Source: an uncultured archaeon
GTDB taxonomy: Archaea > CAYFZR01
Direction of reading: 5' to 3'
DNA: 32,000 bases
NCBI GenBank assembly: GCA_964347835.1
Contig: CAYFZR010000082.1
Location: forward strand, 1-32,000
The notes under the pieces: model-generated
Databases searched by the model: none
What the model was told of the DNA's origin: nothing
What the model saw: only the letters and a program-made list of their open reading frames with translations
Shown here: in pieces, positions 3,093 through 21,904 of the stretch
Numbering within the stretch: position 1 is the stretch's first letter
How the letters are laid out: each line of letters begins with the position of its first letter
Translations under genes and position numbers: made by a program

Positions 3093-3509
3093 TCATTCAA
3101 TTAGCTTTCTCATTCTATTCAAAAATTTTTGAGCATTTACAAGAACGTCTTCAGCATTTTCTTTGAAGTAAGTATATCTATAATCAGCATTTTCTCTACT
3201 ACTCATCGCAGAAGAATAATATTCCAGATAAATATTTTTTAACTTGCCTTTTTTAACTAGGTCTTCAAGAACTACTTTAATAGCAAAATGTCTCCTCTCC
3301 CTATAGCCTAGAGAAAATAATACTGCCCTGGCAGCGTGAAACATAGAGAAATAACCCTTTATAATACACCATTTGAAGTCATTCTCTTCAAATGCACGCT
3401 TCGATCGATTTAAATCATATTCTGCTTCATTGAATTCTTTCTCAATAAGTATTGGATCGCGTTGAATTCTAATGAGAAAACCCTCATCCAAACATTGCTT
3501 AACGTCCAT
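3093..3509 (-). CDS. HEPN domain protein (toxin-like partner of adjacent nucleotidyltransferase)
   Basis: 138-aa all-helical protein resembling HEPN-domain proteins (AEYDLNRSKRAFEENDFKWCIIKGYFSMFHAARAVLFSLGY). Its start overlaps the stop of the upstream MNT-type gene by 1 nt. Confidence 0.75.
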   Translation of the reverse strand: MDVKQCLDEGFLIRIQRDPILIEKEFNEAEYDLNRSKRAFEENDFKWCIIKGYFSMFHAARAVLFSLGYRERRHFAIKVVLEDLVKKGKLKNIYLEYYSSAMSSRENADYRYTYFKENAEDVLVNAQKFLNRMRKLIE

Positions 3510-4066
3510 TATATCAGCTCTATTTTATCTCTCTCAACTCTTTCGTAGAAAGCAGGATCTTTTTCCGACATTTTAATCCATTCGTCCTCTGTAAATACGG
3601 TTGCCTTTAGTTGAATATTAAATTCATTTCTAAGAAGCATTAGCTCTTTTTCCACCTCTCTCTGTTTTATATTACCTATCATAAGTAAGTCCCAATCACT
3701 ATCTTCCACGTCTTCTCCCCTAGCCACAGAACCGTATAAATAAATTCTAACCTTCAATTTTTCTCTAAATTCTGTCAATTTGTAGATAGCAGGGTGTGAG
3801 AGGTTATAGGCAATTTTTAAATGTTTGACAAATGTGTTTTCCCTGTTTAGTTTTAAAAATTTCATTCTGCCCCTTCTTTTTAAAATTAGAAGATTTTCCT
3901 TGGATAATTCGTCTAAATATTTGTTAACTGCACCTAAGCTTAATTCAGTCTTTTCTTTGACTTGTTTTTCATAAAATTCTTGAGTAGGGTTTTCTAAAAA
4001 GAAAAGTAACAATCTCAACGCTGTACCGGATTCCCATATAACACTTTTTGATGAAATTGTTTTCAT
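3509..4066 (-). CDS. nucleotidyltransferase (MNT-type) with N-terminal winged-helix domain
   Basis: Carries the minimal nucleotidyltransferase motif LYGSVARGEDVEDSDWDLLMIG (GS...D-x-D). The N-terminal ~80 aa look like a wHTH (LSLGAVNKYLDELSKENLLILKRRGRMKF). Confidence 0.8.
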   Translation of the reverse strand: MKTISSKSVIWESGTALRLLLFFLENPTQEFYEKQVKEKTELSLGAVNKYLDELSKENLLILKRRGRMKFLKLNRENTFVKHLKIAYNLSHPAIYKLTEFREKLKVRIYLYGSVARGEDVEDSDWDLLMIGNIKQREVEKELMLLRNEFNIQLKATVFTEDEWIKMSEKDPAFYERVERDKIELI

Positions 4067-6632: not shown

Positions 6633-6698
6633 AATCTAATTTTAAATTTCTGAATATAAAAAGGAAAATATAAAAACTATGACTTCCGGTTGTGCGTT

Positions 6699-7913
6699 AT
6701 GACAGAAGATGGCTGGAAGCAAATATCCATACTCCTAGGAATCTTACTAATCGCATCGATCATATTACATCTAATTCCTAAAATTCCAGAAAGTAAACAA
6801 CCTCAGGTTGTTACTCAACCCCCTCCAGACTACTACACTCAAGCACCGGGTATTGACCTATCAAACCTTGATGAGAGTAGAAGCACTCTGGCAATAAGTG
6901 TGATGAATGAGATTGAATGCACTTGCGGATGCGGTCTCAGCATAGCAAAATGTAGGAACGAAGATCCAAGTTGTGTTGTGAGTATCGGGATTGGAAATAA
7001 TGTAGTAAGGTTTGCTGAGAAAGGATACAGTGAGAATGAAACCAAATCTGCAATAGTCAGTGGAAAAGTCCCTGAGATTAATGTGAGCGTGGATGACGAC
7101 CCCTTTAAAGGCCCAGAAGATGCACCCGTTACCATAGTAGAGTTCTCCGATTATCAGTGTCCTTACTGCAAGATATTCTTCGATCAAACATTTAATCATA
7201 TTCTTACGCTGTACGAGGGTAATGTAAAGTTCGTATACCGAGATTTTCCCCTAGGCTTTCATCAGTATGCTCAAAAAGCCGCTGAAGCAGCTGAATGCGC
7301 CGATGATCAGGGAAAGTTCTGGGAGTATCACGATAAATTATTCCAAAACCAAGAAACTTGGTCTTCCTTAGGTATTTCAGAGTTCAAAAGATACGCCGAA
7401 GAGGTGGGATTGAATAATGACGAATTTAATCGTTGTTTGGATAATGAAGAAAAAACAAGAGAAGTAAAAAAAGATCTTCAGGATGGAAGGTCTTATGGCG
7501 TTACAGGAACTCCTACTTTCTATATAAATGGTCGAAAACTAAGCGGCGCGGCTTCTTTTTCAAATTTTGTAAGAATAATTGAAACTGAGTTAAAAGAGAG
7601 CAATTCCATCGAATACGAACTTCCTGATTATGCTTACAAGAGTCAAAAACATTTAGAAAGTTATTTGATAGCCAGAAAAATGCCGGAAGTCTTAGATAAT
7701 TTTCCTTGTTACTGTGGTTGCGATAATTTAGGTCACAAAAGTCTTAAAGAATGTTTTATTGAAGAAGACGGAAGTTTTGAAGTACATGGGGCTTATTGTC
7801 AAGCCTGCATGGACGAAAGTTTGGATGTAAATAAATGGTACGGAGAAGGTTTGTCTTTTATTGAGATTAAAAATAGAATAGACGATAAGTATGGATCAGA
7901 AAAGGCTAATTAA
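6699..7913 (+). CDS. membrane-anchored DsbA-family thiol:disulfide oxidoreductase fused to Cys-rich modules (incl. PCYCGC motif)
   Basis: From the N-terminus: a TM helix, a CTCGCGLSIAKC...C cluster, a DsbA/thioredoxin core (VEFSDYQCPYCKIFF ... GTPTFYINGRKL), then a C-terminal PCYCGCDNLGH...C...CQAC module. The ATG at 6699 is preferred over the track's TTG at 6690. Confidence 0.8.
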   Translation: MTEDGWKQISILLGILLIASIILHLIPKIPESKQPQVVTQPPPDYYTQAPGIDLSNLDESRSTLAISVMNEIECTCGCGLSIAKCRNEDPSCVVSIGIGNNVVRFAEKGYSENETKSAIVSGKVPEINVSVDDDPFKGPEDAPVTIVEFSDYQCPYCKIFFDQTFNHILTLYEGNVKFVYRDFPLGFHQYAQKAAEAAECADDQGKFWEYHDKLFQNQETWSSLGISEFKRYAEEVGLNNDEFNRCLDNEEKTREVKKDLQDGRSYGVTGTPTFYINGRKLSGAASFSNFVRIIETELKESNSIEYELPDYAYKSQKHLESYLIARKMPEVLDNFPCYCGCDNLGHKSLKECFIEEDGSFEVHGAYCQACMDESLDVNKWYGEGLSFIEIKNRIDDKYGSEKAN

Positions 7914-12567: not shown

Positions 12568-13110
12568 ATGTTATCATATTTCTGGCCCACACCTGATATG
12601 AATATATTCGTAGCGGTTTCCATAATGCTTGCTCTTGCGCCGATAAGCATGATGGTCTTCGCTATTATCAGAGGTTTCGAAGATACCATATTGTGCATGG
12701 AATGCCAGCAGTGTGTCGCAGGCTGTCCGGTAAAAAGGGCACTCGGAGAAGAGTACTATGGCCCAAAAAACCTTATGACTCTAGCAAGAGCCAATCATAA
12801 GATTAAAAGCGCTGAAGGTAGAATTTTTTCGTGTACTTCTTGTGTTAGATGTACCGAAACCTGTCCAAGAGCGCTTTATGTTAAGCACACTATGGATAAG
12901 TACAGGGGTGTTTTATTCAAAGAAAACTTGGGTGTGATGGACGGACATAAAAAACTCGTGGAGAACGTTAGAAAATACAGAAATGTTTTGGATCCGGACA
13001 GAAAGAAACCTCCTTTAGATTCTGTTGTGGAAAAAGTAAAAGAACAAGTTAGCAAACAAGAAATGGCCTTAGGATTAGTGGAGATTCCTGTCGTAGAAGA
13101 AGCAAAGTAG
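12568..13110 (+). CDS. HdrC-like 2x[4Fe-4S] protein with N-terminal transmembrane helix
   Basis: Two CxxCxxCxxxCP motifs (CMECQQCVAGCP and CTSCVRCTETCP) follow a hydrophobic N-terminus (IFVAVSIMLALAPISMMVFAII). Confidence 0.75.
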   Translation: MLSYFWPTPDMNIFVAVSIMLALAPISMMVFAIIRGFEDTILCMECQQCVAGCPVKRALGEEYYGPKNLMTLARANHKIKSAEGRIFSCTSCVRCTETCPRALYVKHTMDKYRGVLFKENLGVMDGHKKLVENVRKYRNVLDPDRKKPPLDSVVEKVKEQVSKQEMALGLVEIPVVEEAK

Positions 13111-13908
13111 GTGGGGCGATTGGCGACTTTGCAAAAAATCCCAGAAAAAGTAATTTTCTTTGAAGGTTGCGTGACCTCGAGAAGAATGCACCACCTACGT
13201 TTTGCAATTCGTTTTTTGCTGGAAAAATTTGGTATTGACTATATTACACTTGACCCAAAAGAGCAGTGTTGCGGATCTCCCATATTCAGAGCCGGGGCGG
13301 TAGATGTTGCCGAAAGACAATTGCTCTATAACCTTAGAGAAATTGAGCAGTCTGGTAGAAATGTCGTGGTATCTGCCTGCCCGGGATGCGGATCTACATT
13401 AAAATCGGATGAGGCTGAGAAGAGAGATATCGAAGTAGTACATATAATGGAGATATTCATGAAATTAGCGGAGGAAGGAAGACTCTTTAACAGCCCCGAT
13501 TTAAGAAATCTAGATGCTACTGTAACAGCCCATTTTCCATGTCATTTGATTAGAGGCATGGGTGTTGATTGTTTTAAAGGATTCAAAGAAATATTCGCCC
13601 AAATGCCCGGCGTAGAATACATTGAATTAGAGGAGGCAAATTCTTGCTGTGGCGCCGGAGGTGGAGTAAGGGCATCTCAGATCGAGTTGGCAAAAAAAAT
13701 CAGAGAAAGAAAGATCGATTTTATTAAAGAAACAGAGGCGCAAATTTGCGTGACGATCTGTCCTTTCTGCGAGATCCATATCGGAGAAGGTTTAAAGGAA
13801 GCCGAACTGCCTATAAGGATTATGTCCTTACCATTCCTTCTTGCTTTGCTCCACAGTGATTTTAGAACAAAGATAGATGAATTAGTGGAAAAAGAAAAGA
13901 GTGCGTGA
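13111..13908 (+). CDS. HdrB-like protein with two CCG domains
   Basis: Two C...CCG...CxxC units: EGC...QCCGSP...ACPGCG and FPCH...SCCGAGGG...ICPFCE. The GTG start immediately follows the upstream stop. Confidence 0.8.
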   Translation: MGRLATLQKIPEKVIFFEGCVTSRRMHHLRFAIRFLLEKFGIDYITLDPKEQCCGSPIFRAGAVDVAERQLLYNLREIEQSGRNVVVSACPGCGSTLKSDEAEKRDIEVVHIMEIFMKLAEEGRLFNSPDLRNLDATVTAHFPCHLIRGMGVDCFKGFKEIFAQMPGVEYIELEEANSCCGAGGGVRASQIELAKKIRERKIDFIKETEAQICVTICPFCEIHIGEGLKEAELPIRIMSLPFLLALLHSDFRTKIDELVEKEKSA

Positions 13909-13912
13909 TCGA

Positions 13913-14272
13913 ATGGAGTCATTGATATATATGTTATTTCTTGTGCTTTCATTGCCTTTTGCTTATTACTACATAAAAACAACTATATTTCCCAATCATG
14001 TTGGAAAAATAAAAAAATTCGAAGGCTACGGAAAAATGTCAGAATGCGAAGTAACCTGTAATACTTCAATCCGAGACATATCAGATGGTAAAATGTCAAT
14101 AAAAATATTGGTTGAACTTCCCGATGGAGAGGAAATAAGGTGTGAAATAAGCCCATGTAACGTATGTTTAGAGAAGTTGAAGCAAGGAGATACGGTAGGC
14201 GTTACAAAACTAGGATCAAGATATATCGCCCAGCCGCTATTATTTAAAAGGGGGTATAACGAGTGCCAGTAA
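13913..14272 (+). CDS. small single-TM protein with Cys-rich beta domain
   Basis: A TM helix (LIYMLFLVLSLPFAYYYI) is followed by CEVTC...CEISPCNVC. The alternative GTG start at 13901 overlaps the HdrB-like stop. The 3' end overlaps the next gene by 10 nt. Confidence 0.55.
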   Translation: MESLIYMLFLVLSLPFAYYYIKTTIFPNHVGKIKKFEGYGKMSECEVTCNTSIRDISDGKMSIKILVELPDGEEIRCEISPCNVCLEKLKQGDTVGVTKLGSRYIAQPLLFKRGYNECQ

Positions 14273-14940
14273 CAATAATAGGCTATATAGCATTGACATT
14301 GTTTTTTGGCATAATATTGGCATCCCTTATGGGAGTAATCCCACAGTCCAGATTACCGATTCAGTCTGCTCTGATTGTGGCAACACTCGTGATAGTATTA
14401 CTCGCCTTCGTTGGTAATTTTATAGGGTATACAGTCGAACTGATTTACCCCATCGATCTTCTGGGACAGATTATAATTCATCCTATTACGGCTTTAATGG
14501 CTGGCTTTTTTGTCGCGGGGGCGCTAGAGGCTTCTGGCGGATTCGAAGCAGCCGCTGATTTATTAGATAGAATGGCTAAGACAAAACTGGGACTTCCGGG
14601 AACCGCTTGCATACTGGCCAACATGCCTACCATAATTAGTATGCCATGCGGTAGGATATTGGGCGCGGCCTTGATGCCTGCAGCACTATACTTTGGATGG
14701 ATTTTGGCAGAGAAAACAGGTAAAAAGGAGTTAATCGGAGTGCTTGTATTTTCATTCATTGTTAACGCAGCAGCATCTTGCGGACCCTCTCCGCTCGGAG
14801 GTATTGGTATGATCGGAGAGGGTATGATAGCAATTCCTCTAACCTCTCTCCAAGATCCTCAACAGGCAGGAATAATGTTAGCAACAGGAACATGCGCATT
14901 GGTGATGAGATTCGTGACACCATTGCTACCCGCTGAATAG
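14263..14940 (+). CDS. polytopic membrane protein, paralog A (conserved MPCGR and ASCGPSPLGG motifs)
   Basis: Multi-TM ORF clearly paralogous to 14952-15680. Shared blocks are HPIxAxxAGFxxAGAL, MPCGRI(L/I)GAA and FIVNAAASCGPSPLGG(I/V)GxIGEG. The GTG start follows GGGGGT. Confidence 0.7.
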   Translation: MPVTIIGYIALTLFFGIILASLMGVIPQSRLPIQSALIVATLVIVLLAFVGNFIGYTVELIYPIDLLGQIIIHPITALMAGFFVAGALEASGGFEAAADLLDRMAKTKLGLPGTACILANMPTIISMPCGRILGAALMPAALYFGWILAEKTGKKELIGVLVFSFIVNAAASCGPSPLGGIGMIGEGMIAIPLTSLQDPQQAGIMLATGTCALVMRFVTPLLPAE

Positions 14941-14951
14941 GAGGGTGAAAT

Positions 14952-15680
14952 ATGGAAGAAAGATTAAAAATCGGATACATTTCATTTTTCTTCTTCATGA
15001 TAGTCTTAGCCGCTGCCATCATACTCTACAGTAAAATGGGGGTGAAAGTGCCTCCAATTCAGACGATTCTCATCTTCATAGCAATAGTAATAATGCTGAT
15101 AAGCAGAGCGAGAATAGAAGATCTTCTTGCAGGAGTAATCTTACATCCAATAATGGCAATGTCTGCTGGTTTCTTGATAGCAGGGGCTTTGGGACTCGCA
15201 GGAGGTTTTGATGCACTACTAGACTTATGCTGGAGGATTGCGGGGCTCGTGGACACCGTTTTTTCCCCATTACAAGGGCTTGGAATATCTCTCTTAGGAT
15301 TAGAGAAAGGTATATCCCTTGGATTGCCCTTCGTGGCCGTTATTATAGTTAACATACCCACCATCACTCCTATGCCCTGTGGAAGGATAATAGGCGCTGC
15401 AGTTATTCCTGGAGTATATTATTTTGCAGAAGCAGTAGCAGGAGCAACCGGAAACACTTTGGCATTACCGGTGTTGGTTGCAGCCTTTATTGTAAACGCT
15501 GCAGCATCTTGCGGACCCTCTCCGCTCGGAGGAGTAGGAGGTATAGGTGAGGGCAACCTGGGAGTAGAAATCGGCTCATCAGGACCATCACAAGAGACCG
15601 GTATAATTATTGCAACAGGGGTTACGGCTCTTGTTATAGCATTCGTGACGGGATATGCCCTGATTCCATATCTAAAATAG
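14952..15680 (+). CDS. polytopic membrane protein, paralog B (conserved MPCGR and ASCGPSPLGG motifs)
   Basis: Same motif set as paralog A, with a ~25-aa insertion after the first conserved block. GGAGGGTG lies upstream of the ATG. Confidence 0.7.
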   Translation: MEERLKIGYISFFFFMIVLAAAIILYSKMGVKVPPIQTILIFIAIVIMLISRARIEDLLAGVILHPIMAMSAGFLIAGALGLAGGFDALLDLCWRIAGLVDTVFSPLQGLGISLLGLEKGISLGLPFVAVIIVNIPTITPMPCGRIIGAAVIPGVYYFAEAVAGATGNTLALPVLVAAFIVNAAASCGPSPLGGVGGIGEGNLGVEIGSSGPSQETGIIIATGVTALVIAFVTGYALIPYLK

Positions 15681-15691
15681 GAGGTAATAAA

Positions 15692-15835
15692 ATGAATCTC
15701 CCTCTCTTAGCAACAATGGTTGGAGCAGGAACTCTGACAGGTATAATGATAAATATAGCGTTGGGCTACAGCCCATTAAATATCGGCGGAATACTAGGCG
15801 GCGCGGTAACTGGATTGCTAATGTTCATACTCTAG
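15692..15835 (+). CDS. 47-aa Gly-rich transmembrane peptide
   Basis: Translates to MNLPLLATMVGAGTLTGIMINIALGYSPLNIGGILGGAVTGLLMFIL. GGAGGT lies 5 nt upstream. It fits exactly into the 11/9-nt gaps of the operon and is below the ORF-track cutoff. Confidence 0.45.
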   Translation: MNLPLLATMVGAGTLTGIMINIALGYSPLNIGGILGGAVTGLLMFIL

Positions 15836-15844
15836 GGTGTTGCT

Positions 15845-16576
15845 ATGGAAATCGAGCCGATTAGGAGAATATCTCAGTTAGTAGTGCTATTCGTAGCCCT
15901 CGTAAGTCTAGGTGCCGTATGCTCTAGAGATCCTTTCTTCATGCTACAAACGATATTTGCAAGGGGTAGCGTACTTCCTACGTTAATTCTTGCGTCCCTT
16001 GGGGGCCTCATCGTTTTTTCATTGATATTTGGAAGAGCGTTTTGTAGTTGGGTATGTCCGTTTGGAACAATACTCGATATATTGAATGGAATAACCTCCA
16101 AGAAACACAAAATACCTGAATTTTTAGAATACAGGTCCTTAAAATATTCTGTACTCGGAGGTTTTTTGATAACTGCTTTCGTATATGGATATACTGCTTT
16201 CTGCACTGTCTGTCCAGCAGGAGTATTTTTTAGATATGTAGAAGTTGCTACTGTTGCACCTGTATTTCCACTCATGCTCTTGGTGGCTGTATTTGTTTTT
16301 GCAATATTCTATCATGGCAGGGCTTGGTGCAGATATCTCTGTCCACTGGGTGCTTTTTTATCTCTAGTTAGTAAATTCAGCTTTACAAAGTTAAAAGTTG
16401 ATAATGAAAAATGTAGAGCATGCCTCTTGTGCCAAAGGACTTGTGCTATGGATTTGTTGGTAGTGGAGGATAGTATATGGAAGAAAAAAGACGCGGTCCC
16501 TCCAGCAGAATGCATAAGATGTGGCGACTGCATCAACGTTTGCCCTGCCGGGGCAATAGAATTTGACATGTTTTAG
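15845..16576 (+). CDS. NapH/MauN-type membrane polyferredoxin (4Fe-4S binding)
   Basis: TM helices carry the paired CxxCP motifs FCSWVCPFG and WCRYLCPLG. The C-terminal soluble 2x[4Fe-4S] region reads CRACLLCQRTC and CIRCGDCINVCP. Confidence 0.8.
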   Translation: MEIEPIRRISQLVVLFVALVSLGAVCSRDPFFMLQTIFARGSVLPTLILASLGGLIVFSLIFGRAFCSWVCPFGTILDILNGITSKKHKIPEFLEYRSLKYSVLGGFLITAFVYGYTAFCTVCPAGVFFRYVEVATVAPVFPLMLLVAVFVFAIFYHGRAWCRYLCPLGAFLSLVSKFSFTKLKVDNEKCRACLLCQRTCAMDLLVVEDSIWKKKDAVPPAECIRCGDCINVCPAGAIEFDMF

Positions 16577-16665
16577 AATTTATAATTCACTTATATACTG
16601 TTGCAAACAAAACTTTTATCTTTGTTATGTACTAAATAATATTGTTAGCGTGAACTTGTCACTCA

Positions 16666-17217
16666 ATGAAGAGGATGGTGAGGGGCACCATGAACGCAGT
16701 ATTAGATAACTATTTCAAGGAACTCATCTTGGAAGTAGCAGGAGAGGAAGGGATCGACGTCGTATCTGTATTGGGAGGAAAGGAGGCCACCGACGAAGAA
16801 CTTGCACAAGAAACAGGATTAAGAGTTAATACGGTGAGAAAGACCCTATACAAATTGTATGATAAGCATCTCGCCTCTTTTGTGAGAAAAAGAGACAAAA
16901 GCACTGGATGGTACATATATGTCTGGAAGTTAGACCTTGAGAGAGTCAACGATGTTTTGATTTCCGATAGACACGAATTACTGGAAAAAATAGAAAAACG
17001 CCTGGATTATGAGAAAAATCACATATTCTTCCACTGTTGCACTGAAAACGGTGTTTGTGTAAAGATACCTTTTGAGTCTGCCGCCGAACTCAATTTCGTT
17101 TGCTCTAAGTGTGGCAATCATCTGGAATTAGTTGATAATTCAGAGATTATAAGCAAGCTTGAACGAGAAAAGAACGAATTATACCATGAAATAGATATTC
17201 TAAAACGATTTCAGTAA
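16666..17217 (+). CDS. tfe: transcription factor E (TFIIE-alpha homologue)
   Basis: Has an N-terminal winged helix (TDEELAQETGLRVNTVRKTLYKLYDKHLASF...WYIYVWKL) and a C-terminal zinc-ribbon region (HCC...C...CSKCG). The start may be the third ATG (16690), which follows GGTGAGGGG. Confidence 0.8.
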   Translation: MKRMVRGTMNAVLDNYFKELILEVAGEEGIDVVSVLGGKEATDEELAQETGLRVNTVRKTLYKLYDKHLASFVRKRDKSTGWYIYVWKLDLERVNDVLISDRHELLEKIEKRLDYEKNHIFFHCCTENGVCVKIPFESAAELNFVCSKCGNHLELVDNSEIISKLEREKNELYHEIDILKRFQ

Positions 17218-17294
17218 AATGAGTGACATCTTATAATATCCATCAAGGGTAAATTTTATATTATGTTAATACTCTATCCCTAAAGAGGGATGGT

Positions 17295-17993
17295 ATGAGA
17301 CGACAATCAATAGGTTTTATTATCATAATGATTCTCTTGTTCATAGTTGCCATACCCACTATCTCGGGGGAGGAGCCACAGAGTCCTGAAGAAGTATCCT
17401 ACACGAAGTCTTTTTGTTATGGATGTCATGATGTGGCTCACAATGTTCATGTCGCAGTTGTAGTAGATTGCGCACAATGTCACGGAAATCTGCCAAGAGT
17501 ATTTATTCCTGAATGTGTAGCGTGCCACTCTCCGCCAATCCACAGGATTCACGAAGCTTCCGCTAGAGAAGACTGTCAAAAGTGTCATGGCGAAATAGCA
17601 GCCATTCACGCTGGTTTAGGAGAAGTGATATGCTCCAGATGTCACGGAACAGATGTGGCGAAGATACACGGAGGAGAGACTAGTTGCGAAAAATGTCATG
17701 AAACCGTTCCAAACATCGTAAAACCTCACGCAATGGAGGGAGAGATAGTCTGCCAGGCCTGCCACGAAGATAACCTCATTACAATACATGAACTCATTGC
17801 TACTGGCAATGAAAAATGTTATAAGTGTCATGGAACAGTCCACTTCATACACGCGAAAACTAGATTGGAAAAAGAAGGCAAGAAAGGACCCAGTTGCGAA
17901 AATTGTCACGGATCAGTTGAGATTGGCATACCCGAATGTACTCAGTGTCACAGACCTGAAGTCGTACACACTCTCAGCGCACTCATAGGTTAG
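17295..17993 (+). CDS. decahaem c-type cytochrome with N-terminal signal/anchor helix
   Basis: Ten CxxCH motifs counted in 232 aa: CYGCH, CAQCH, CVACH, CQKCH, CSRCH, CEKCH, CQACH, CYKCH, CENCH, CTQCH. There are 11 further His residues. The hydrophobic N-terminus is IGFIIIMILLFIVAIPTISG. Confidence 0.85.
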   Translation: MRRQSIGFIIIMILLFIVAIPTISGEEPQSPEEVSYTKSFCYGCHDVAHNVHVAVVVDCAQCHGNLPRVFIPECVACHSPPIHRIHEASAREDCQKCHGEIAAIHAGLGEVICSRCHGTDVAKIHGGETSCEKCHETVPNIVKPHAMEGEIVCQACHEDNLITIHELIATGNEKCYKCHGTVHFIHAKTRLEKEGKKGPSCENCHGSVEIGIPECTQCHRPEVVHTLSALIG

Positions 17994-18019
17994 GGTTGAT
18001 CCCCTTTTATTTTTTAAAA

Positions 18020-19009
18020 ATGAAAAAGGAAAAAATTAGCTTCACAAATCTGGAAAAAGAGGTAATAGAGATAGGTCTTTGTTCCTATTGTGGAACATGC
18101 ATGGGCGTTTGTCCGCCCAAATGCATAGGGATCGAAGATGAGACCATCTCCCTCGTAGGTGAATGTAAAGAATGTGGCGTATGCCTTTCAAAGTGTCCGA
18201 GGTTTGATCTAAGGGTAGATCTGGAAGATCTTGGACCCTATTATGATGAATACATAGGCCCGTATTCAAAAATCCCCTGTGCTAAATCTAAGAGTGATGA
18301 TATCATTAATGTTTGCCAAGATGGAGGTGTAACAACCTCTCTACTTACCTATTTATGCGATTTAGGCGATTCAATAGTCGCTGTTGACAGGGATGAAGAA
18401 TGGAAACCCATACCCATACTTACCAAAGATAGGAATGATCTAATTAAAGCTGCTGGCTCAAAATATTCTGTTGCAAGTCCAAATAGAGTTTTAAGCGATG
18501 TCAAGGATTCAGTATCTGTAGTAGGTACTCCATGCCAAATTGAGGGTCTAAGGAATATAATTTTGAACCCCAAAGGTGCAAAGAAGTTGGCTTCTAAATT
18601 AAATATTTTGATAGGTTTCTATTGCATGGAAAATTTTGTTTATTCAAAATTAAAGAGATTTATATTAAAAAATGGAATTGATATAAAAAATGTGAGAAAG
18701 TTCGATATTAAAAAGGGAAAATTCCTTATATATGAAAGAGAAACCCATGAGTTTCCACTTTCAGATTTAGAGGGCTGTATTTCTAGGGGATGTCACTTTT
18801 GTAGGGACTTTACTGCCATGATGGCAGATATTTCGGTGGGTAGTTTGGGATCTCCATCAGAATATAACTCAGTTATTATTAGGACAGAAAAAGGACTAAA
18901 CTTATGGAAGAACTGTGTAAAGGAAGGATACATAGAAGAAAGTGAAACTGAGGTAAATTTAAAACCTATAAGAAAGTTATCTCGGAAAAAAAGGGAGCGA
19001 AAAATATAA
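18020..19009 (+). CDS. F420-dependent oxidoreductase beta/FpoF-FrhB family subunit with N-terminal 2x[4Fe-4S]
   Basis: CSYCGTCMGVCP and CKECGVCLSKCP are followed by an FrhB/FdhB-like body (CQDGGVTTSLL ... VGTPCQIEGLR ... FYCMENF ... CHFCRDFTAMMADISVGS). The ATG at 18020 is preferred over the track's TTG at 17996. Confidence 0.8.
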   Translation: MKKEKISFTNLEKEVIEIGLCSYCGTCMGVCPPKCIGIEDETISLVGECKECGVCLSKCPRFDLRVDLEDLGPYYDEYIGPYSKIPCAKSKSDDIINVCQDGGVTTSLLTYLCDLGDSIVAVDRDEEWKPIPILTKDRNDLIKAAGSKYSVASPNRVLSDVKDSVSVVGTPCQIEGLRNIILNPKGAKKLASKLNILIGFYCMENFVYSKLKRFILKNGIDIKNVRKFDIKKGKFLIYERETHEFPLSDLEGCISRGCHFCRDFTAMMADISVGSLGSPSEYNSVIIRTEKGLNLWKNCVKEGYIEESETEVNLKPIRKLSRKKRERKI

Positions 19010-19042
19010 AGTGTTATAGTTTTCAAGCACCTACAAGGAGGG

Positions 19043-19879
19043 ATGGAGATGGTAGTAAAAGTAGGCGTAATTAAGTGTGGAGCTATTGCTACTTCCGCGA
19101 TGTTAGACCTTCTTTTAGACGAAAGAGCGGATAGAAAGGACATTTCCACTAAAGTAGTCGGTAGCGGTGCGAAGATGGGTCCAGAAGATGCTGAAGAAGC
19201 TGTAAATAAACTTTTAGAATTCGATCCTGACATGGTTATATACATTGGACCGAATCCAACAGTGGCTGGACCAAAAAAGGCTAGAGAACTGCTATCTGAG
19301 TCTGGAAAGCCTTCTTTGATTATTGGTGATGCTCCCGGTGTAAAAGCAAAAGAGGATATGGAGAAGGAGGGTCTTGGATACCTACTTATAAGGGCAGATT
19401 CTATGATTGGAGCCCGGAGAGAATTTCTTGATCCAACGGAGATGGCAATATTTAACGGAGATCTCATCAAAGTGCTCGCATCTACTGGAGCCTTCAATAT
19501 AGTTGTAGAGGCCATTGACAGCATGATAGAAGCCGTAAAGGAAGGTAAAGAGGTAGAACTCCCAAGGATCGTCATTACAAGAGACAAGGCAGTTGAAGCG
19601 GCTAACTTCACCAATCCATACGCAAAAACCAAGGCGATGGCATCCTATGAGATTGCTACAAAGGTAGCGGACCTGGATGTGGAGGGTTGTTTCGTTGTAC
19701 AAGATCCCAACAAATATATTCCAATTGTATCAGCAGGTCACGAGATGTTAAGGATTGCTAGTATTCTGGCAGAAGAAGCAAGAGAAATAGAAAAATATGG
19801 GGATACTGTATTCAGAAGACCTCATTTAGCAGAAGGTAAGTTAGTACAAAAGATAGAACTTATGAAAAAACCCGATTAA
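19043..19879 (+). CDS. mtd: F420-dependent methylenetetrahydromethanopterin dehydrogenase
   Basis: The N-terminus VKVGVIKCGAIATSAMLDLLLDERADRKDISTKVVGSGAKMGPE and the ~278-aa length match the Mtd family closely. Confidence 0.9.
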   Translation: MEMVVKVGVIKCGAIATSAMLDLLLDERADRKDISTKVVGSGAKMGPEDAEEAVNKLLEFDPDMVIYIGPNPTVAGPKKARELLSESGKPSLIIGDAPGVKAKEDMEKEGLGYLLIRADSMIGARREFLDPTEMAIFNGDLIKVLASTGAFNIVVEAIDSMIEAVKEGKEVELPRIVITRDKAVEAANFTNPYAKTKAMASYEIATKVADLDVEGCFVVQDPNKYIPIVSAGHEMLRIASILAEEAREIEKYGDTVFRRPHLAEGKLVQKIELMKKPD

Positions 19880-19899
19880 ACTCTCGCCTCTCTCTTACC

Positions 19900-19905
19900 T
19901 TTTTT
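19900..19905 (+). terminator. oligo-T tract downstream of mtd (archaeal-type terminator candidate)
   Basis: A TTTTTT run lies 21 nt after the mtd stop, with a second T5 run about 10 nt further on. Confidence 0.3.
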
Positions 19906-19960
19906 GCTTATATTATTTTTATAACCATATGATTTAAGTCCAAGTTATTGTAAAGATCCT

Positions 19961-20410
19961 ATGGTAGATAGCATGCTCGATTCATTTAATTTCCTTCCGA
20001 TACGGGTTGCATCAACAGAACTATTGGGGGATCTAAAGGATAAACTCACGAATAGAGAGTATACAGAAATTACAAAAATACCTGGCTCCAGAGTAGGAGA
20101 GATACTTGATCTGCTCAAAGAAAGTGATTTCTTAGGAGAATTTAATATCATAAAGGCAGTTGAAAAAGAAGAAAACGCGAAATTTGATGCTGTTGCGAGC
20201 ATTATTTCGCCAATCAGTTGTAATGCCTGTTCTATATCTAAAGACAACCAAAACTGGTTAATATATGATTACAGAGACTACGAGACCTTATTAAACTTCA
20301 GTTTGGTCGTGTGCGCAGACTGCGGAACCATCGAAGAACAGGCAAGTGATACCCCTCTCAGCGCTGCAATAGGACTTTGCAAGTTACTGGAGTTAGATAA
20401 AAAAATTTAA
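19961..20410 (+). CDS. hypothetical protein, possible wHTH plus Cys4 zinc-ribbon
   Basis: The HTH-like segment is TNREYTEITKIPGSRVGEILDLLKESDFL. The C-terminal Cys pairs are CNAC and CADC. Confidence 0.5.
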   Translation: MVDSMLDSFNFLPIRVASTELLGDLKDKLTNREYTEITKIPGSRVGEILDLLKESDFLGEFNIIKAVEKEENAKFDAVASIISPISCNACSISKDNQNWLIYDYRDYETLLNFSLVVCADCGTIEEQASDTPLSAAIGLCKLLELDKKI

Positions 20411-20417
20411 AGTATAA
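20402..20417 (+). promoter_or_regulatory. BRE/TATA-like box upstream of tRNA-Lys
   Basis: AAAAATTTAAAGTATA is centred ~28 nt upstream of the tRNA 5' end. Confidence 0.35.
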
Positions 20418-20438
20418 TCGCTAATATAATATTTTAGT

Positions 20439-20515
20439 GGGCCTGTAGCTTAGTCTGGGAGAGCAACGGGCTCTTAACCCGTCGGTCGTGGGTTCAAATC
20501 CCTCCGGGCCCGCCA
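20439..20515 (+). tRNA. tRNA-Lys (anticodon CUU), CCA encoded
   Basis: Cloverleaf folded by hand. Acceptor GGGCCUG/CGGGCCC (one G.U pair), D stem GCUU/GAGC, anticodon stem ACGGG/CCCGU with loop CU-CUU-AA. The variable loop is 5 nt, and the T arm is GUGGG-UUCAAAU-CCCUC with one U-U mismatch. The 3' end reads GCCA. Confidence 0.85.
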
Positions 20516-20534
20516 TTTTCATTAGGGTGATTAA

Positions 20535-21095
20535 ATGCGTAAATCCGCTGTCGAAATATATGACAGGCTACAGAATATGGCTGACGACATCAAACTTAGG
20601 AACAAACAGGGAGAGTTAGAAGACTGGAAAGAAGTAGCCGCTTTCATTGATACACTTAATAAATATGCGGATTCACTTCCTCCGAGTGTATATGCGAGAA
20701 TAAATGCAGGGCTTCCAGAAATCATTGATAAGATGAGAGAGGATGCGAGAAAAGAATTAAAGGCTCTAAGGGAAGAAAGCAGAGAACATCTTTCCCAATA
20801 CGAGAAGGGCGATATATCAGAACTGGAGTTTGAAGACATATTAAACAGCATTCTTGATAGGAGAGAAAAAATTACAGAAGGATTCTTAGCCGGAGTAGCG
20901 TCAGAATACCGTGAAATTGAAGAAGACGTAAATGTCTATAGAGAGAGACTAAAAAGGAAACTTTACGAAAGGAGAGAGGTCATAACAGATTTTTTGAGAT
21001 TTGCCGAAGATATAGAAGAATACGTTAGCGGAGAAGAAAGATACATAGTCGCAGCCATTTTAACTTTGGTGAGTAAGCTAGAGGAACGGAAATGA
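20535..21095 (+). CDS. hypothetical helical/coiled-coil protein, translationally coupled to NifH-like gene
   Basis: 186-aa E/R/K-rich helical ORF with AGGGTG upstream. Its stop overlaps the next start (ATGA at 21092). Confidence 0.55.
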   Translation: MRKSAVEIYDRLQNMADDIKLRNKQGELEDWKEVAAFIDTLNKYADSLPPSVYARINAGLPEIIDKMREDARKELKALREESREHLSQYEKGDISELEFEDILNSILDRREKITEGFLAGVASEYREIEEDVNVYRERLKRKLYERREVITDFLRFAEDIEEYVSGEERYIVAAILTLVSKLEERK

Positions 21096-21904
21096 AGGAT
21101 ATCCTTAGGATAGCCGTATACGGAAAAGGAGGGATAGGTAAATCAACTATATCCTCCAATCTGGCTGTCTCTTTTTCTCTTTTAAATAAATCTACGCTTC
21201 TCATGGGATGCGATCCAAAAAGAGATACAACCAGAAATCTTCTCTCTGGTAGATTGATACCAACAGTCTTGGAGAGTATACGTGAAAACAACAGTTTTAA
21301 CCTCGAGAAAGTAATTCATAAAGGTTATAACGACGTTTTATGTGTAGAATCAGGCGGTCCCGAGCCCGGAGTCGGCTGTGCGGGAAGAGGGATAATATTG
21401 TCTATCGAAACTTTGGAGAAACTAGGCTTGTTCGATTTAGTTGATACAGTAATATTCGATGTACTGGGAGATGTTGTTTGCGGCGGATTCGCAATGCCCA
21501 TCAGAAAAGGTTACGCTAACTATGTTTATATTGTTATTTCTGGAGAATTCATGTCTCTATACGCTGCAAACAATATTTGTAAGGGTATTAAGCGTTTTGC
21601 AGATAGAAAAGGAGCGCTATTAGGTGGGTTGATATATAACTCGCGAGATGTTCCAAATGGTCTAGAAATATCAAAAGAATTCGCGAATAAGATTGGCACA
21701 GATATTTTAGGAGAAATTCCAAGGAGTAACTTAATACTCAAAGGAGATGTCCAGAGAAAAACTGTATTTGAGGCATTTCCTGATTCAGATATAGTAGAAA
21801 GGTTTGTGGAGTTGACCCATAACATAGTAAGATCCTCACCTACAACCCCAAAACCTCTTTCTTATGAAGAACTAGAAGACCTTGCTATTCAAACTCTATT
21901 GTAG
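21092..21904 (+). CDS. cfbC: NifH/BchL-family ATPase, likely Ni-sirohydrochlorin a,c-diamide reductive cyclase component CfbC
   Basis: The P-loop is [10 protein letters not shown]. The cluster ligands are CAGRG and VCGGFAMP. There are no nifD/K neighbours and the context is methanogen-type. No cfbD is adjacent, so the CfbC assignment is an inference. Confidence 0.75.

Follow-up and report, generated by a model that had tools for sequence, protein, structure and literature searches.

A 32,000-nucleotide stretch of DNA from an uncultured archaeon (contig CAYFZR010000082.1; referred to here as the window) carries, one after the other, genes for a decahaem c-type cytochrome, for a member of the FrhB/FpoF superfamily of coenzyme F420 oxidoreductase modules (here called FrhB-like), and for Mtd, the F420-dependent methylene-tetrahydromethanopterin (H4MPT) dehydrogenase. 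An earlier note on this DNA proposed that the trio encodes a dedicated path from F420H2 to the cytochrome. We found that the adjacency of FrhB-like and Mtd recurs in independent lineages and that the adjacency of the cytochrome and FrhB-like does not. On balance, we lean toward the view that FrhB-like and Mtd form a cytoplasmic pair that recycles F420 and F420H2, and that the cytochrome is a lineage-specific neighbor rather than the end of a dedicated F420-to-cytochrome wire.

In the mechanism that we favor, the FrhB-like protein would be a free-standing iron-sulfur flavoprotein, with two [4Fe-4S] clusters in a ferredoxin domain followed by FAD and one [4Fe-4S] cluster at the F420 site, and it would shuttle electrons to or from F420, with a low-potential iron-sulfur carrier, in the simplest case ferredoxin, at the other end. 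By analogy, the protein is probably a ferredoxin:F420 oxidoreductase with Mtd as its consumer. Mtd would use or make that F420H2 in its step of the archaeal Wood-Ljungdahl pathway, the interconversion of methenyl-H4MPT and methylene-H4MPT, and the organism appears to have no linked F420-reducing hydrogenase. The cytochrome would work outside the membrane, fed from the quinone pool via a membrane module. Its gene would have come to sit upstream in one lineage, probably after duplication, and the FrhB-like gene, perhaps together with mtd, would be read from the cytochrome promoter. With a shared promoter, the three genes may be co-regulated without any direct exchange of electrons between their products.

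Recurrence of the FrhB-like/mtd adjacency

The identities and locations that the earlier note gave for the cytochrome, the F420 subunit, and Mtd agree with our family-model matches and motif counts (Table 1). The complete trio was found only in the window and in two assemblies that are nearly identical to each other, a Logan assembly (L001) and the metagenome-assembled genome (MAG) JBHIEG01 (L005), so that it is known from effectively two species. Because the whole 14 kb is collinear in the window and in L001/L005, this conservation says little. The synteny check suggested in the earlier note therefore gave a divided answer: one relative has the trio, which formally rules out an adjacency absent from every relative, but it was found in no independent lineage. 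The next FrhB-like homologue (39% identity) is located amid housekeeping genes. A word-index search and an exhaustive HMMER pass over 1.84 billion representatives returned no FrhB-like relatives between 81% and 41% identity.

As a systematic test, metagenome contigs were scanned with a 23-sequence alignment of the FrhB-like family, which gave 80 loci (L015–L094; 567 kb in all, about 7 kb on average). These were searched with the window proteins and for open reading frames (ORFs) with at least three CxxCH motifs. The sample is biased, as it was drawn with one peptide pattern and consists of the best 80 of at least 577 matches, many on short contigs. The mtd gene lay within about 3 kb of the FrhB-like gene in 15 of the 80 loci, and in 10 it was no more than 300 nt downstream (tandem in four, convergent in six). 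After de-replication, the Mtd-linked loci formed 13 clusters at 90% identity and 8 of the 33 clusters at 70%, whereas simple arithmetic (one mtd per genome of 1.5–3 Mb) gives a chance expectation of well under one linked locus. The linked loci (for example, L037:5980-8737 and L060:6001-10202) represent two or more clades affiliated with Bathyarchaeota. The same link is seen in a named MAG of Bathyarchaeota (L097:4861-9826), where the order is ftr, FrhB-like, mtd, and a gene for an Mpt_N protein of 570 aa; other Mtd-linked loci add cofE, cofD, and a nitroreductase-family gene. The link between the F420 subunit and mtd, which had been drawn from the window, is thus a general one among relatives of this subunit.

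These results bear on the simplest alternative, which is that the three genes have no functional relation and that their order is a chance product of a compact genome. The same-strand run from 12.5 to 21.9 kb does mix unrelated functions (transcription factor E alpha [TFE-alpha], a tRNA, and a NifH-like protein), short spacers are usual in the region, and the nearest relatives of Mtd have other neighbors. However, FrhB-like and Mtd are adjacent in at least eight clusters with an identity to one another of below 70%, both in tandem and convergently, and in the company of H4MPT and F420 genes, which is far above chance and already disfavors accident for this pair. We consider an accidental arrangement of all three genes very improbable.

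No multihaem ORF (at least three CxxCH motifs) was found in any of the 80 loci. They likewise contained no homologues of the window cytochrome, HdrC-like protein, membrane proteins, or TFE, and the NapH/Hdr-like cluster of the window was absent from them save for two weak partial matches. The contrast between 15 loci with mtd and none with a multihaem gene is clear despite the biased sample.

The FrhB-like protein, Mtd, and possible partners

The FrhB-like protein belongs to the FrhB/FdhB/FpoF superfamily, as judged from its scores with the Pfam models FrhB_FdhB_N (56.1 bits, cut-off 22) and FrhB_FdhB_C (148.7 bits, cut-off 23.3). Its N-terminus contains two CxxCxxCxxxCP motifs (C21/24/27/31 and C49/52/55/59) that make up a 2x[4Fe-4S] domain; in the 23-sequence alignment, six of these cysteine columns are invariant, and C24 and C52 are at least 90% conserved. 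Together with matches to Fer4_9 and Fer4_10, these motifs place the protein in the ferredoxin-domain subclass, to which FpoF, the N-terminal half of Fsr (Fsr-N), FwdI, and ACDS-zeta also belong. The protein carries the cofactor motifs QDGG, VGTPCQ, GxFCxE, and CxxCxDFTA..ADISVGS, and in the same alignment each cysteine column that ligates the core cluster is either invariant or conserved at 90% or more. No hydrophobic segment was found in it, and the protein is predicted to be cytoplasmic.

Translation starts at ATG 18020 and not at TTG 17996. The length of the cytochrome/FrhB-like spacer differs between species, which puts the TTG extension out of frame in L001, and the first 27 FrhB-like codons differ between the window and L001 by eight synonymous and four nonsynonymous changes (manual count), an excess that indicates that they evolve as coding sequence. 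The earlier note had placed the start 3–26 nt past the cytochrome stop; the distance of 26 nt stands, and the shorter one, which depends on a TTG that is not conserved in frame, does not.

Several named enzymes were considered and rejected. For FrhB proper, the scores fell short of the cut-offs (204.2 against 331.5 bits for TIGR03289 and 222.9 against 269 for PRK09325), and frhA and frhG are not in the window. The shortfall was greater for FpoF/FqoF (148.8 against 475 bits for NF040616 and 143.1 against 444 for PRK09326). A full Fsr was rejected because the siroheme sulfite-reductase half is absent, the protein stopping at residue 329, and FdhB because the score to 8rvu_E was just 36.6 bits and fdhA is not in the window. 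Among proteins of known structure, the best match, and the closest characterized sequence, was Fsr-N (7np8, 192 bits over residues 13-322; also 7npa), with an identity of about 42% as estimated from tree distance; the other PDB scores were 168 bits for FwdI, 168 for FrhB, 167 for ACDS-zeta, and 37 for FdhB. A neighbor-joining tree was built from the 80 metagenomic relatives together with five partial PDB sequences that had been copied out of alignments. In 72 of 100 bootstraps it placed the FrhB-like protein of the window, with its orthologue, as sister to two Fsr sequences; this tree is rough, with a long branch and without FpoF, FqoF, or FGltS references. These comparisons identify the FrhB-like protein as a deep, lineage-restricted paralogue that is the equivalog of no named enzyme, and they bear out its assignment to the Fsr-N and FrhB-type F420 modules rather than to an unrelated family.

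The identity of Mtd is unambiguous (NF002162, 423.2 bits with the cut-off at 297; PF01993, 425 bits across model positions 1-274), and a GGAGG precedes its likely start at 19049 by 7 nt. Its orthologue in the Candidatus Hydrothermarchaeota MAG JBHIEG01 (GCA_046760505.1) shares 92% identity with it. Beyond this orthologue, identity does not rise above 65%, and the nearest sequences are those of Methanobacteriales and Methanococcales (class I methanogens), and a genome scan for intermediate relatives with Mtd as the probe matched just one genome. The lineage is isolated in current databases.

A close functional parallel for the FrhB-like protein is the soluble FpoF/FqoF (of Methanosarcina mazei, and as proposed for Archaeoglobus fulgidus), which has the same 2x[4Fe-4S] domain and FrhB-type core in approximately 330–350 aa. 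In M. acetivorans, fpoF (MA3732) adjoins mer (MA3733), apart from the fpo operon (PMC3419521), so that in both cases the gene lies beside that of an F420-dependent H4MPT enzyme and away from a membrane-complex operon. PMC4543118 and PMC9012536 cite Welte and Deppenmeier for the finding that soluble FpoF catalyzes ferredoxin:F420 oxidoreduction. The FrhB-like protein, for which this activity is a prediction, is not an FpoF orthologue (149 against 475 bits).

FwdI and ACDS-zeta of Candidatus Ethanoperedens thermophilum (8rja_E and 8riu_B) have the same domain order and align over their full length at 167–168 bits, and from them it is clear that a module of this kind can serve different enzymes as a portable F420 adaptor. 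They lead to the main rival of the reading that we favor, namely that the FrhB-like protein uses its ferredoxin domain to plug onto some iron-sulfur enzyme or complex whose genes lie elsewhere, and that its adjacency to Mtd reflects merely a shared F420 pool. Such a partner could be a sulfite reductase of the Fsr-C/Dsr-like kind that stands alone, a Nuo/Fpo-like complex of 11 subunits without an input module, carbon monoxide dehydrogenase (CODH), or formylmethanofuran dehydrogenase. Modules of the same architecture have been shown structurally to be bound to CODH and Fwd in Ca. Ethanoperedens (PMC11493965), the nearest characterized relative is part of a larger enzyme (Fsr), and Fsr-C/AsrC-like proteins have been reported from MAGs of Hydrothermarchaeota, as have Nuo-like complexes that lack NuoEFG (PMC6759336). 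The affinity to Fsr-N makes a split Fsr-type enzyme or a Nuo-like complex without its F subunit worth considering as the partner. On the other hand, FwdI and ACDS-zeta are bound subunits whose genes lie inside fwd and cdh clusters, and characterized docking modules are encoded within the operons of their partners (PMC9012536), whereas no candidate partner gene, for an iron-sulfur enzyme or otherwise, adjoins the FrhB-like gene in the window or in the Mtd-linked loci. The neighbor that it does have, Mtd, differs from the partners of FwdI and ACDS-zeta in having no metal centre to dock onto. We therefore view docking onto a partner encoded elsewhere as possible but doubtful.

The FrhB paralogue clusters of anaerobic methanotrophic archaea (ANME) described by Chadwick et al. 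(2022), which are linked to HdrA, NuoF-Trx, Pfor, CODH, or FGltS, belong to the same family, and their partners were inferred from conserved neighborhoods by the same logic as is used here. An Mtd-linked class and a cytochrome-linked class are both missing from the ANME classes of that study.

The decahaem cytochrome and the transcription signals

The cytochrome contains ten CxxCH motifs, which hold all 20 of its cysteines, and 21 histidines, 11 of them beyond the motifs, which is enough for bis-His ligation. The haems are packed at approximately 21 residues per haem after the N-terminal segment. The protein has a single N-terminal hydrophobic segment (residues 5-23), either a cleaved signal or an anchor, and it exceeds the Pfam cut-offs for Cytochrome_C7 (49.7 bits) and c3_2 (44.9 bits). 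These features predict an exported, extracytoplasmic bis-His decahaem protein. The objection that the F420 subunit and the cytochrome face opposite sides of the membrane, which the earlier note had itself raised, is upheld by the presence of a hydrophobic segment in the one protein and the lack of any in the other. The cytochrome is not a member of the DmsE/MtrA decahaem family (TIGR03508), with no NCBIfam match at E <= 0.01, and its distant homologues reach just 23–31 bits against the TIGR03508 cut-off of 192. Its GC content and third-position GC content (0.446 and 0.378, compared with 0.36–0.45 and 0.30–0.42 in its neighbors) give no clear sign of foreign origin when compared gene by gene. 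An AlphaFold2 model from a 6-sequence alignment was unusable (mean predicted local distance difference test [pLDDT] score, 39).

Only five homologues of the cytochrome were found among 5.8 billion protein clusters: an orthologue (79% identity), a paralogue (65%), and three proteins at 31–33% identity. The paralogue (L006:653-1342, contig JBHIEG010000029.1) is in the same genome as L005, on a different contig, where it stands alone amid housekeeping genes (proteasome-ATPase, PdxS/PdxT). Its TTTTATAT box is as far from the ATG as is that of the window cytochrome, and it also has a similar ribosome-binding region (GAG(A/G)GGATGG) and a T-rich stretch past the stop codon. A stand-alone paralogue with the same promoter box indicates that the cytochrome gene acts as a self-contained cassette, present in at least two copies. 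The three distant homologues (P0062–P0064) keep the ten-haem core and, by inspection of the alignment, add an 11th CxxCH, a linker rich in Thr and Pro, and, at the C-terminus, a hydrophobic anchor that is PGF-like, although no NCBIfam model detects PGF-CTERM in them. One (L095:2679-3620) is encoded directly downstream of a cytochrome b gene (PF01292), another (L009:7373-8299) is flanked by NrfD/4Fe-4S/molybdopterin modules, and the context of the third is uninformative; none of the three has an FrhB-like gene nearby. The family is thus associated with membrane quinol-handling modules, which belong to the canonical quinone-pool route, and it is from these neighborhoods that a supply of electrons from the quinone pool appears most likely for the window cytochrome.

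Other small archaeal multihaem cytochromes, such as those with membrane or PGF-CTERM anchors and the ANME cytochrome b plus multihaem cytochrome (Mco-type) systems, are similar in being small bis-His proteins with a signal segment, and the distant homologues of the window cytochrome share with them the PGF-like anchor and the location beside cytochrome b or NrfD. The window cytochrome differs in having no 11th haem, no linker, and no anchor at the C-terminus, and its neighbor encodes a cytoplasmic flavoprotein and not a membrane quinol oxidase.

The tight packing of the trio that had been described is correct, with 26 nt between the cytochrome and FrhB-like genes and 33–39 nt between the FrhB-like gene and mtd. 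Neighboring same-strand gaps range from -10 to 183 nt, so this packing is not exceptional, and both spacers fall between the gaps that are clearly operonic (-10 to 11) and those with a visible promoter (77–183). A TATA-like element upstream of the cytochrome gene is kept in L001/L005 while the spacer around it has diverged, and it is the probable promoter of the unit. Before the FrhB-like gene, where the spacer in L001/L005 is 25 nt long with a T8 run, we found neither a Shine-Dalgarno sequence nor a TATA element at promoter distance in the window or in L001/L005, so that its transcription probably depends on the cytochrome promoter. This spacer also has a T-run, which could attenuate transcription. 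Because T-runs are common within genes (13 of five or more between 12 and 22 kb), termination there is uncertain, and the run is weak evidence either way. A hairpin or attenuator over the T-run and the FrhB-like start was considered, as the palindrome looked compensatory by eye, and was rejected because it folds no better than shuffled sequences (z of about -0.5 in each of the two species).

The FrhB-like/mtd spacer, from the TATA-like element to the mtd ATG (approximately 45 nt), shows only three differences between the window and L001 (manual count), whereas nearby coding third positions differ freely. A near-invariant spacer that contains AAAAATATAAAG and GGAGG makes an internal mtd promoter possible. 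T-runs in a diverged spacer after mtd mark the probable end of the transcription unit, and the next gene is preceded by a conserved upstream block of its own. The ribosome-binding contexts of the cytochrome gene (AAAGAGGGATGG, 17282-17293) and mtd (AAGGAGGGATGG, 19035-19046) are near-identical, and the FrhB-like gene between them has none.

Against this background, we return to the dedicated route of the earlier note, in which F420H2 from Mtd would supply the extracytoplasmic cytochrome, or the reverse, via a membrane partner that bypasses Fpo and the quinone pool. The conserved 25–26-nt spacer without a separate promoter is consistent with such a route, as are a membrane iron-sulfur cluster (NapH-like and transmembrane-anchored HdrC-like proteins) encoded approximately 700 nt upstream on the same strand and the ability of FrhB-like modules to dock onto iron-sulfur proteins (PMC11493965). 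However, the adjacency is confined to two close, fully collinear species; neither a multihaem gene nor a homologue of the membrane proteins or the HdrC-like protein accompanies the FrhB-like gene in the 80 loci; a paralogue of the cytochrome stands by itself; the relatives of the cytochrome occur with cytochrome b or NrfD modules; and the cytochrome and the FrhB-like protein lie on opposite sides of the membrane. Moreover, the NapH/Hdr-like operon (12568-16576) is not immediately upstream, as had been stated, because the housekeeping TFE-alpha gene lies between it and the cytochrome. A direct route would be possible only through some membrane partner and has no support beyond adjacency, and we regard it as unlikely.

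A fuller version of this idea treats the trio as one operon that encodes both ends of an Fpo-independent chain, from Mtd-derived F420H2 through a membrane iron-sulfur protein to the decahaem protein. Mtd would make F420H2 during C1 oxidation, the ferredoxin domain of the FrhB-like protein would dock on the NapH-like/HdrCB-like set or on a Nuo-like complex without its F subunit, and electrons would reach the decahaem protein at the outer face, there to reduce metals or pass to another species. We judge this chain to be quite improbable.

Several observations also weigh against the recycling pair that we favor. The FrhB-like protein sits on a long branch nearest to Fsr-N and not robustly inside either of the Mtd-linked Bathyarchaeota clades, so its function is assigned by analogy and not by orthology. 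In the three nearest Mtd contexts outside the lineage (63–65% identity), mtd has neither an FrhB-like nor a cytochrome neighbor. Dependence of the FrhB-like gene on the cytochrome promoter would amount to a real regulatory coupling between the two. Finally, transfer of electrons from F420H2 to ferredoxin is energetically uphill, so that a C1-oxidizing mode would need another acceptor.

Surrounding genes, lineage, and implications

All genes from 12568 to 21904 are on the + strand. In the cluster of HdrC-like, HdrB-like, and membrane proteins, the first five genes overlap or abut (gaps of 0, -8, -10, and 11 nt), and the NapH-like gene begins 164 nt past the preceding gene. The tRNA-Lys gene between the hypothetical genes downstream of mtd splits the apparent same-strand run into separate units; an Rfam scan of the region from 12 to 22 kb found nothing beyond this tRNA. 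The window contains no hydrogenase genes and no Fpo/Fqo genes.

Table 1. Genes and sequence elements in the region of the trio (window positions)
Feature	Position	Strand	Evidence or details
HdrC-like protein, membrane-anchored (transmembrane)	12568-13110	+	Family-model matches, hydrophobic segment
HdrB-like protein with two CCG domains	13111-13908	+	Family-model matches
Three membrane proteins, no family match	13901-15680	+	Pfam/NCBIfam scan
NapH-like protein	15845-16576	+	Family-model matches
TFE-alpha	16666-17217	+	PF02002, 79.6 bits; TIGR00373, 159 bits (cut-off 149.5)
TATA-like element TTTTATATTATG	17254..17265	+	~37 nt upstream of cytochrome ATG, conserved in L001/L005
Decahaem c-type cytochrome, 232 aa	17295-17993	+	Ten CxxCH, Pfam
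Cytochrome/FrhB-like spacer	17994..18019	+	T6 at 18010, then AAAA right before ATG
FrhB/FpoF-superfamily F420 oxidoreductase module (FrhB-like), 329 aa	18020-19009	+	PF04422 and PF04432
FrhB-like/mtd spacer	19000..19041	+	AAAAATATAAAG TATA-like, overlapping FrhB-like stop codon; GGAGG Shine-Dalgarno
mtd, F420-dependent methylene-H4MPT dehydrogenase, 276 aa from second ATG	19049-19879	+	PF01993, NF002162
T-runs after mtd	19896..19925	+	T6 at 19900, T5 at 19916; in diverged spacer
Hypothetical gene	Downstream of mtd
tRNA-Lys (CTT)	20439-20515
Second hypothetical gene	20535-21095
NifH-like protein	21092-21904	+	Family-model matches

Two of the membrane proteins in the upstream cluster (14263-14940 and 14952-15680) are polytopic paralogues, 52% identical, without a Pfam or NCBIfam match, as is also the case for 13901-14272. 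They share the strictly conserved motifs NxPTIxxMPCGRIxGAA and NAAASCGPSPLGGxGxIGEG, and both are wedged between the HdrB-like CCG protein and the NapH-like protein in this cluster of overlapping genes. An AlphaFold2 model of one of them from a 2-sequence alignment was unusable (pLDDT 42). At the other end of the region, the NifH-like protein scores just under the cut-offs for NifH (349.5 against 394) and CfbC (346.8 against 402), and the start of its gene overlaps by 4 nt the stop of a 186-aa ORF of unknown function (20535-21095). This gene merits attention in a lineage that is not known for making F430 or fixing nitrogen. Further upstream, a 407-aa protein (6690-7913) combines a DsbA-like thioredoxin domain with a PCYCGC-motif domain; it may have an extracytoplasmic thiol-redox role that could bear on cytochrome maturation. 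On the - strand (3093-4066), a HEPN-domain gene adjoins a nucleotidyltransferase-domain gene, with an overlap of one base between their ends; this is the usual HEPN/MNT toxin-antitoxin-type pair.

The identity of its Mtd to that of JBHIEG01 marks the source organism as a Hydrothermarchaeota-like archaeon. Hydrothermarchaeota have been reported to carry an archaeal Wood-Ljungdahl pathway and mtd, an FrhB that no hydrogenase subunits accompany, and numerous c-type cytochromes (PMC6775978, PMC6759336). Each component of the trio is thus of a known kind that has already been reported in the phylum, and the cytochrome adjacency is new but narrow. It serves as a caution: when genes are tightly adjacent in just a single lineage of genus level, this does not amount to evidence of a new route from F420 to cytochromes, and proposals of extracellular electron transfer in Hydrothermarchaeota should still seek a membrane quinol-oxidizing partner.

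The FrhB-like/Mtd pair has a wider bearing. The source of F420H2 in Wood-Ljungdahl archaea that have only FrhB has been described as unclear, and there is no agreed source in those that use H4MPT without an F420-reducing hydrogenase (Bathyarchaeia, Hydrothermarchaeota, and others) (PMC7886697). A ferredoxin-domain FrhB paralogue that recurs beside mtd, ftr, and F420-biosynthesis genes is a testable candidate for the missing ferredoxin:F420 link in these organisms.

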